This document shows, piece after piece, positions 5,060-5,731 of a stretch of 64,000 nucleotides of DNA; the first letter of the stretch is position 1, and every line of letters starts with the position of its first letter. Position numbers and translations under genes: made by a program. A model generated the notes under the pieces. That model did not search any database and had not been told where the DNA came from. It saw only the letters and a program-made list of their open reading frames with translations. The stretch lies in assembly GCA_965214305.1 (NCBI GenBank), contig OZ243949.1, forward strand, positions 2,515,962-2,579,961. Direction: 5' to 3'. This DNA comes from Pseudomonadales bacterium (GTDB taxonomy: Bacteria; Pseudomonadota; Gammaproteobacteria; Pseudomonadales; Azotimanducaceae).

Positions 5060-5199
5060 GGGAATTATGTAGCAAAATCCGCAAAACCCCATTGTGCATT
5101 TTGCAGAAAGTTTTGGGACCTATATATTCTGCCTGACCACGGCAAAGGTGGTATGATGAGAGCAGTCACAAAACTGGAGGATTCCAGATGACACGTTCA
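5060..5199 (+). promoter_or_regulatory. Portable 5' module copy 1: IS-type 26-nt inverted repeat, sigma70-like promoter, RBS, and ATG ACA CGT TCA
   Basis: 140 nt that match 8011-8150 with 4 mismatches. It contains TTGCAG (5101-5106), a 16-nt spacer, TATATT (5123-5128), GGAGG (5176-5180) and ATG at 5188. Confidence 0.5.
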
Positions 5200-5731
5200 C
5201 CCCCCCCCCCCCCCCCCCCCCCCCCCCCCCCCGCGCGCTAGACTAGCGGCTATCCTGCTGCTGGCACTGCTGGCCAGTCCGGCGATGGCCGAGCAGTGCA
5301 ATGCCTCCCATATCGGCGTATACCAGGGCTTCCCGATGGCGGGCACGCCGGCAGTAGAAGGCACCGTTGGCGGAGTGATCGTCCAGTTCTTCCTGGAAAA
5401 CTGCGACAATTTCGGCAGTTTCGAGACTCCCCGGGAATACCAGATTCCCTTCTGCGCCGAGTTCTTCGACACCACCTCGTGCGACGCCGCCGCCACAAAC
5501 TGCCTGAGCAACCGTGTTGCCGGGGCCAGCGGCCTTCTAGGCACCCGCTGGCAGCCCGCCGCCGGCCACCCGTTCAAGCGGTGCAACATCCTGGACGTGG
5601 CAGAAGGCTTTACGTCTGCCTTGCTAACCCCGCATGAAAACAGTTCCAAGGACGAAGGGGAGAATTCCCTGCACGTCATCATGTACAACCCGACCCGTCA
5701 TCTGCGCATTCCCATTCGGGACAATGACTGA
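5188..5731 (+). CDS. Secreted Cys-containing protein, frameshifted at the poly-C tract (phase-OFF as written)
   Basis: ATG 5188 gives MTRS plus 11 Pro, then TAG at 5239. The +1 frame reads through the tract as P..PRARLAAILLLALLASPAMA/EQCNAS, a signal peptide, and continues to the stop at 5731 (listed ORF 5285..5731). Confidence 0.55.
5200..5232. repeat. Homopolymeric C33 tract
   Basis: There are 33 consecutive C starting at codon 5 of the ORF that begins at ATG 5188. Confidence 0.95.

Follow-up and report, generated by a model that had tools for sequence, protein, structure and literature searches.

To our knowledge, nearly all contingency loci described so far belong to cultured pathogens adapted to a host, and their tracts measure about 7–15 nt. 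In Neisseria, for example, pilC reportedly undergoes translational phase variation through a poly-G tract; pilC tracts comprise about 10–15 G. The nanH3 gene of Gardnerella has a poly-C tract of 8–14 C, located after the signal peptide (bioRxiv 10.1101/2020.09.16.300947). For Bordetella, the available part of one survey describes G/C tracts that occur beyond chance, are polymorphic between close genomes and are enriched in cell-envelope genes; these tracts are about 10 nt long (bapC has G10) and include promoter tracts, for example upstream of fimX (PMC1891110). Here, we analyze a 64,000-nt stretch of contig OZ243949.1 (positions 2,515,962 to 2,579,961, forward strand) from a Pseudomonadales bacterium of the Azotimanducaceae, hereafter called the window, in which one gene, termed gene A, contains 33 consecutive C residues (C33) directly after its fourth codon. 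Judging from sequence comparison, this tract probably represents a contingency locus, in which a hypermutable homopolymer switches the translation of a small Cys-rich Sec-secreted protein between phases. A preliminary description of the locus had pointed to the tract and to its position. We confirm that observation in part, with the frame arithmetic reversed, and find the contingency-locus interpretation supported.

As in pilC and nanH3, the G/C homopolymer of gene A is found early in a coding sequence for an exported protein, and its length would toggle between a full-length and a short product. Another shared feature is that out-of-frame tracts lead to automated calls of open reading frames (ORFs) that lack a signal peptide (here P0001, P0007 and P0139). 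Homopolymer phase variation of an exported protein is, then, already well known as a kind. Unlike in those genes, tracts here reach 24–33 nt and lie between a basic leader and the hydrophobic core, ON alleles carry 2–11 prolines inside the signal peptide, and the module is common to unrelated genes and associated with an insertion sequence (IS). Polymorphism between near-identical orthologues serves as the criterion for candidate phase variation, as it does in Bordetella; a mobile cassette is found only here, as far as the available part of that source goes (PMC1891110). A search of the literature found nothing on the taxon, nor on homopolymer phase variation in sponges or symbionts. What is new is the setting, namely uncultured Gammaproteobacteria near Candidatus Azotimanducus (Pseudomonadales), for which the closest reference genome is a metagenome-assembled genome (MAG). 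Also new are the length of the tracts, which at 24–33 nt are two to three times as long as in the described cases considered here (8–14 nt); the position of the tract within the signal peptide throughout two families with unrelated mature domains; and an IS1595-derived cassette of 152 nt, which gives promoter, start codon and tract to two such genes and has its breakpoints in the tract.

The ISNwi1 group of the IS1595 family is said to include members with passenger genes. For these elements, 8-bp target duplications and ends of the form GGnnatTAT are expected (ISfinder). The element described below resembles them in its zinc ribbon and ISXO2-like DDE transposase, in its terminal inverted repeats (IRs), which begin GGGAATTAT, in its 8-bp duplications, and in the non-transposase cargo between the IRs. 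It differs from them in that the transposase is truncated and frameshifted, and in that the cargo is a candidate phase-variable gene for a secreted protein. Furthermore, the promoter, start codon and tract of the cargo abut the IR, and a second copy of that end is fused to another gene.

Gene A and its reading frames

Gene A lies on the plus strand. A Shine-Dalgarno sequence, GGAGG (5176–5180), is found 7 nt before ATG 5188, and the start codon is followed by ACA CGT TCA, completing a leader MTRS (5188–5199). The C33 homopolymer comes next (5200–5232). All of these elements, including the count of exactly 33 C, agree with the preliminary description. The tract makes up codons 5–15 of the ATG 5188 frame, which reads MTRS-P11-AR and ends at TAG 5239–5241, yielding a 17-aa product. 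In the +1 frame, by contrast, the tract runs into the remainder of a signal peptide, PRARLAAILLLALLASPAMA (5231–5290), which is conserved among homologues, and then via EQCNAS into a mature protein of 146 aa plus stop (5291–5731), with six conserved Cys and a C-terminal NPTRHLRIPIRDND. This frame is open until TGA 5729–5731. Our translations reproduce both frames as first reported, from the 11 Pro and the TAG of the one to the stop at 5731 of the other.

The change that would restore the frame had been given as one additional C or two fewer. The reverse is the case. As assembled, the tract is one C too long, and removal of one C (C32) or addition of two (C35) gives a 180-aa precursor; productive lengths are of the form 3n+2. 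Tracts of 31 and 34 C, which had been proposed as the lengths to look for in sequencing reads, are nonproductive, as both C31 and C34 yield MTRS-Pn-RALD followed by a stop, i.e., early termination. The lengths to look for are 32 and 35.

No ATG, GTG or TTG codon occurs in the productive frame between TGA 5189 and ATG 5285, which rules out an alternative in-frame start upstream of the signal peptide. Lacking such a start, gene A as assembled can make only the 17-aa peptide, or else the product of an ORF that has neither a ribosome binding site (RBS) nor a signal peptide. The tract is real, and gene A is out of frame as assembled. In the entire window, only C33 and a C9 run at 8151–8159 represent C or G runs of at least 9 nt; words of nine C are seen 26 times, compared to a mean of 1.8 in shuffles, and C33 is far beyond chance. 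Its length is an assembly call, and the exact count of a 33-nt homopolymer is uncertain by consensus error. No match to an Rfam RNA element was found within the window for the 5′ untranslated region (UTR) or the tract, and the predicted fold of this 5′ region (UTR plus tract) is no better than that of shuffled sequences (z = -1.08), giving no sign of a stimulatory RNA structure. The Shine-Dalgarno sequence itself sits within a small hairpin, CTGGA-GGAT-TCCAG (5174–5187), just 5′ of the ATG; a terminator scan of the minus strand also flags this hairpin.

Tract length and phase vary among homologues

DNA of eleven related loci was recovered, and reading frames were computed programmatically. Two of these loci, L005 and L006, are 5′-truncated and lack the tract. 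Where present, the tract is always at the same position and spans 9–33 nt. At the DNA level, three of ten tracts are in frame (ON), and seven are out of frame (OFF). Those of gene A in the window (C33), L003 (C29), L008 (C25), L004 (C24) and L009 (C15) are OFF with an offset of +1, as is the tract of L001 (C20), which belongs to gene B, the second gene with this layout (see below). Gene A of L007 (C15) is OFF with an offset of +2. The in-frame tracts are those of gene A in L011 (C18) and L010 (C14) and of gene B in the window (C9). Flanks of orthologues are 94–98% identical, while the tract is C33 in the window versus C29 in L003 and C24 in L004; the tracts of C14, C15 (twice), C18 and C25 belong to paralogues.

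Close alleles differ in the same way at the protein level. P0141, whose mature protein is one residue away from that of the window, is ON, with seven Pro and a leader MNQVNRES; in the same comparison at 90% identity, the calls for P0139 (the ORF of the window itself), P0140 and P0001 are truncated. Within other clusters formed at 90% identity, the Pro run is 3 in P0002 versus 5 in P0144, and 4 in P0053 versus 5 in P0158. P0151 is ON with six Pro, and its cluster partner P0012 is OFF with C25; P0154 is ON with seven Pro, and its partners P0023 and P0155 are truncated calls. Across the gene A and gene B families, a run of at least three Pro precedes the hydrophobic core in 22 cluster representatives, and for 40 representatives the called start lies within the signal peptide. 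Hence, tract length is polymorphic, the flanks are conserved, and ON and OFF phases are both present, as expected of a contingency locus. The layout of slipped-strand ON/OFF switching, which had originally been proposed from the window alone, gains support from this polymorphism across homologues and close alleles.

A scan of genomes for the junction between ATG and tract returned L001 only. The sole match from a metagenome scan, L002, was rejected: it falls by chance within an ABC-transporter-like ORF and lacks the cassette. The tract-less copies of gene A in L005 and L006 (1250–1530 in each) are devoid of leader, tract and most of the signal peptide, and the sequence upstream is unrelated. 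Both lie near AAA-ATPase-like/PDDEXK_9 genes, and both look like 5′-truncated or re-fused copies. In two members of the gene B family from outside the window, P0078 and P0115, the leader is followed by PPPPP-THTH or PPP-HTHTH. Such leaders may be encoded by a C run plus a (CA)n dinucleotide repeat, a second simple-sequence repeat.

Stop codons directly behind the tract

Both nonproductive frames stop within 14 nt of the tract. The sequence responsible is CTAGACTAG (5239–5246, plus strand), where TAG 5239–5241 terminates the ATG frame and TAG 5244–5246 terminates the third frame. In the productive frame, the codons after the tract are GCT AGA CTA GCG, and AGA and CTA embed one TAG for each wrong frame. 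These codons are rare: in seven housekeeping genes of the window, only 1.6% of Arg codons are AGA, and only 4.9% of Leu codons are CTA. Eight of ten homologous loci, with members of both families among them, have the motif CTA[GA]A[CT]TAG directly behind the tract. Off-frame stops and rare codons look like features built for switching.

The gene A product

The preliminary description had recognized a signal peptide in the +1 frame, and the frame-corrected product indeed conforms to simple rule-of-thumb criteria. It has a basic n-region (R3, R16, R18), a hydrophobic core of 11 residues (LAAILLLALLA) with a mean Kyte-Doolittle hydropathy of 3.14, and a cleavage motif, AMA↓EQ, with small residues at positions -3 and -1. 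We infer that the product would be Sec-secreted, with a signal peptide of the type cleaved by signal peptidase I (SPase I). The mature peptide begins EQCNASHIGVYQGFPMAGTPAVEGTVGGVIVQFFLENCDNFGSFETPR.

The gene A family consists of 18 cluster representatives and is without a Pfam domain. All 17 homologues that were aligned have an open frame of about 146 codons, with 51 invariant columns and no internal stop. These proteins have in common the C-terminal NPTRHLRIPIRDND and six Cys that are invariant or nearly so. Because every one of the 17 frames is open, and because the invariant columns and the six Cys are kept at pairwise synonymous divergence (dS) of up to 0.37, it appears that gene A is not decaying. 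A conserved core combined with fast-changing positions would fit a functional, diversifying exported protein better than a pseudogene. Searches with gene A found no match in Pfam, NCBIfam or the sequences of the PDB. Its AlphaFold model is weak, with a predicted local distance difference test (pLDDT) score of 62, and the best Foldseek match is non-significant (E = 0.075).

Gene B shares the 5′ module of gene A

Gene B (8139–8795, plus strand) had been called a sister gene of gene A. It does have the same start, ATG ACA CGT TCA, followed by a C9 tract, and it is in frame; the likeness, however, is confined to the 5′ module, and the mature domains are unrelated. A profile comparison of the two families aligns 30 columns, corresponding to leader and signal peptide, and we therefore reject homology of the mature parts. 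Common to both families are only the basic leader, the polyproline and the (L/R)A(R/K)L-hydrophobic core-AxA segment. The product of gene B, a secreted protein of 218 aa, combines an FN3-like beta-sandwich with a C-terminus rich in Cys. In the model (pLDDT 87), an N-terminal beta-sandwich is joined to a Cys-rich helical tail. Matches of the sandwich to FN3-like structures are marginal (best E = 7.6e-4, TM score of about 0.5 on the target), such that the likeness to FN3 may be regarded as a resemblance only. More than 120 representatives make up the gene B family, and individual genomes contain several paralogues. Members are also found in MAGs that are labelled Rhodobacteraceae, Aestuariivita, Thiotrichales and others. 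Within a lineage of uncultured Gammaproteobacteria, at least two protein families whose mature domains are unrelated share the same layout.

A cassette derived from an IS1595-type element

The 5′ module shared by the two genes is a cassette of 152 nt. Copy A (5057–5208, plus strand) contains an IR, a promoter-like site, the 5′ UTR, the RBS, ATG ACA CGT TCA and the first C's of the tract. Copy B (8008–8159, plus strand) has its IR, in direct orientation, at 8011–8036 and ends with the C9 tract (8151–8159). The copies are 97% identical, and identity stops inside the C tract. In copy A, a sigma-70-like promoter, TTTGCA-17-TATATT (5100–5128, plus strand), matches the consensus at 9 of 12 positions, with one such site found versus 0.4 expected. 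On the basis of this consensus match, the promoter may be active; if transcription starts just 3′ of it, the 5′ UTR would be about 50–60 nt long.

The outer end of copy A is formed by the sequence GGGAATTATGTAGCAAAATCCGCAAA (5060–5085, plus strand). This sequence recurs in inverted orientation at 9326–9351 (minus strand), beside the remnants of a transposase gene, which identifies it as the terminal IR of an IS1595-type element and the inverted copy as the right end of that element. The terminal IRs are 26–31 nt long and 94–97% complementary. Directly left of the IR at 5060 lies the 8-bp sequence AAAAATTT (5052–5059), and a direct repeat of it lies directly right of the IR ending at 9351 (9352–9359), as in a target-site duplication. 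The transposase of the IS1595 family (8743–9281, minus strand) is frameshifted and truncated; what remains is the zinc ribbon (PF12760, 6e-09) and part of the DDE domain (PF12762, 4.5e-06), in a split gene. With its transposase split and truncated, the element is non-autonomous. The 4.3-kb unit bracketed by AAAAATTT (5060–9351) comprises, in order, cassette A, gene A, a truncated MFS gene, a displaced acyltransferase fragment, cassette B, gene B and the transposase remnant. In L001 (OZ244807.1, a Candidatus Azotimanducus sp. MAG), a 1.35-kb unit is found, consisting of IR, cassette, gene B, transposase remnant and IR. This unit is 97% identical to that of the window and resides at a different site, flanked by a perfect 8-bp duplication, TTTCAATT.

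The native context of gene A is evident from the circular genomes L003 and L004, where the gene lies between a DUF1214 gene and an MFS gene and has a different promoter region and a different leader, MNTLHN. Window positions 5205–6620 (plus strand), which run from the tract through gene A into the truncated MFS transporter gene, are collinear with L003 3922–5337 at 97.8% identity, and this match begins inside the tract. The adjoining MFS-acyltransferase gene fragment (6613–7601, plus strand) corresponds to L003 1412–2399, with an overlap of 8 nt at the junction; it is upstream of gene A in L003 and downstream of it in the window. These matches imply that gene A of the window is a rearranged piece of the native locus, joined to an IS-borne cassette, with the joint in the homopolymer. 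All of the junctions could have arisen through insertion of the element, deletion from tract to tract, formation of a circle at the 8-nt microhomology, and integration via cassette homology. An assembly chimera at the tract is unlikely, considering that matching 8-bp duplications flank the 4.3-kb unit and that the unit is shorter than typical long reads.

One possibility, which we raise tentatively, is that the IS1595-derived end constitutes a portable contingency switch, composed of IR, promoter, RBS, ATG and poly-C, which would travel with the element and could be grafted onto different genes for secreted proteins with the homopolymer or the cassette as recombination joint. The idea stems from the presence of a 97% identical cassette on two unrelated mature domains, with both homology breaks inside the tract. 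Also relevant here are P0026, a third gene with the MTRS leader; the occurrence of at least three different leaders before mature regions that are 93–99% identical; and the target-site duplications at different sites in two genomes. Were this so, promoters, leaders and switch tracts would be shuffled among paralogous families, and tracts of 24–33 nt would be scars or products of tract-to-tract joins.

Additional repeats occur near the element or resemble it. A solo copy of the IR, 83% identical, is located at 29000–29026 and abuts a truncated RhuM-family fragment (28737–29384, minus strand), which covers only positions 15–88 of the 252 in profile PF13310. An 88-nt repeat resembling a miniature inverted-repeat transposable element (MITE), with terminal inverted ends (GGTAGTGGCTCA and TGAGCCACTACC), is present at 4463–4550, at 4991–5055 (inverted) and at 27534–27621, with 86–90% identity. 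Two inverted copies bracket a low-GC ORF (4552–4833, minus strand) of 93 aa with a hydrophobic N-terminus, and it is exactly where the copy at 4991–5055 ends that the 4.3-kb IS-bounded unit has inserted.

Proposed mechanism and alternative explanations

We envision that gene A is transcribed from the promoter within the 152-nt cassette and translated from ATG 5188, the tract being read as a polyproline stretch that separates the basic MTRS leader from the hydrophobic core of the signal peptide. When the locus is replicated, slipped-strand mispairing would change the number of C. Tracts of 3n+2 (32, 35 and so on), i.e., one phase in three, would give rise to the 180-aa precursor, which would be exported. 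In the other two phases, translation would abort within 14 nt of the tract at the built-in stops, yielding a peptide of 17–20 aa. The assembled consensus would then represent an OFF state, by one extra C.

A number of points weigh against such a switch. High-frequency, reversible change of length within a population, on which the mechanism depends, is something that we infer. The OFF call comes down to one base of a 33-nt homopolymer in an assembly, which is within the error of length calling. None of the five DNA-verified tracts of at least 20 C is in frame, and the offset is +1 in six of seven OFF alleles, a pattern that pure random slippage does not predict (two-sided binomial p = 0.125; small n). 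Pairwise ratios of nonsynonymous to synonymous divergence (dN/dS) for gene A range from 0.5 to 2.5, which fits diversifying selection and also relaxed constraint. The copy in the window is part of a rearranged, IS-flanked mosaic beside gene fragments. Finally, slippage of RNA polymerase or ribosomes on so long a tract could blur a binary switch, and the C33 locus may be less a bistable switch than a mixture of phases at the level of the population or the molecule.

In long-read consensus sequences, the errors that remain mainly concern the length of homopolymers, and contig names of the related assemblies (ctgN_coverage_c/l) suggest that these are long-read metagenome assemblies. The assembled length of an otherwise real tract might be off by one or two, with a true mode of 32 or 35 and a gene that is simply ON with a polyproline insert. 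This concerns the state of the window allele rather than the existence of a variable tract. A systematic overcall would give the +1 excess shared by six of the seven OFF calls, but in-frame calls are seen in the same data sets at C14 and C18, as well as at Pro runs of 6–7, equivalent to about C20–24 (P0141, P0151, P0154), so a uniform +1 overcall does not fit. Moreover, the 4–11-nt differences between orthologues cannot be consensus error. We deem a miscall of this sort unlikely. Another scenario, which strikes us as quite unlikely, is that expression depends on recoding rather than a DNA switch. In this proposal, slippage of RNA polymerase, or a +1 shift of peptidyl-tRNA-Pro at CCC-C, would allow leaky, set expression at any DNA length, and the +1-offset arrangement would be the functional one. 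A homopolymeric CCC template suits both processes (PMC1088944; PMC4519876; PMC7577736): slippage of transcription on long homopolymers is well documented for bacteria, with IS elements exploiting it (PMC1088944), and tRNA-Pro is prone to +1 shifting at CCC-C, where it is restrained by m1G37 and EF-P (PMC4519876, PMC7577736). Consistent with recoding, the predominant OFF phase is +1, the tract-plus-spacer lengths of three orthologues (38, 32 and 29 nt) differ by 3, 6 and 9 nt and preserve the phase, and the ORFs behind the five long OFF tracts are nevertheless intact. On the other hand, the phase bias is not significant (p = 0.125), and P0141, P0151 and P0154 are in frame despite their long runs, which means that no single phase is conserved. 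Stops in both wrong frames suggest that both frames are met, and the fold of the 5′ region (z = -1.08) offers no stimulatory structure. Known programmed slippage involves short conserved runs (mostly A/T, about 9) or a single CCC-N in a fixed phase, unlike the tracts here, which vary in both length and phase.

It is very unlikely, in our estimation, that gene A of the window is a decaying duplicate, a translocated and IS-captured partial copy of the native locus that has become a pseudogene with a neutrally expanding tract. The genomic context invites this idea: gene A of the relatives lies between DUF1214 and MFS genes under a different leader (MNTLHN), whereas the window copy sits inside an IR-bounded unit, where its neighbors are a truncated MFS gene and a displaced acyltransferase fragment. 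A dN/dS of about 1, and a tract that is the longest seen, point the same way. Yet the mature ORF of 146 codons is intact and one amino acid away from the in-frame P0141, and none of the homologues has internal stops. L003 and L004, which are in native context, are also out of frame, indicating that the OFF state is not specific to the translocated copy. In addition, the cassette supplies a promoter-like site, an RBS and an ATG. Phase variation by tract slippage is the account that we favor.

Broader implications

Contingency logic appears here in bacteria known solely from MAGs. It extends over two multi-paralogue families whose members are secreted proteins, FN3-like in one family, and a transposable element physically includes the candidate switch module. 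If our reading is correct, stochastic ON/OFF control of secreted proteins would be common outside pathogens. These loci would also provide a natural system in the range of tract lengths in which slippage of DNA, slippage of RNA polymerase and effects of polyproline/EF-P coincide. A practical consequence would be that gene callers systematically mis-annotate such genes as ORFs lacking a signal peptide, as with the 40 cluster representatives noted above.

Other features of the window

Repetitive sequences are also found elsewhere in the window. Downstream of the IS-bounded unit, an ORF of 1284 aa (9545–13399, plus strand) encodes a lipoprotein-like product, beginning MNLRLLKMGALALGALFLVACGGSS, and contains three tandem repeats of 1200 nt, some stretches of which are 100% identical; it gave no match in Pfam or NCBIfam. 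A gene for a TonB-dependent receptor (13406–16156, plus strand) follows directly. On the other side of the unit, three tandem 54-nt repeats (4131–4292), which are 76–81% identical, encode the 18-aa repeat DIGKRIDxLKKDHADFKx. They lie in a small ORF on the minus strand (4068–4388), adjoining aceK; a plus-strand ORF overlapping this region had no family match, the minus-strand ORF itself not having been scanned. Finally, families of intergenic palindromic repeats resembling repetitive extragenic palindromic (REP) sequences, for example those with CTAGGCGCCTCTGCCTTCGGAATTCGCGGCTGCAAA, are scattered over the window in both orientations, at 16216–16288, 18516–18569, 32467–32520, 36918–36976, 43172–43201, 45864–46027, 51467–51496 and 60035–60198.

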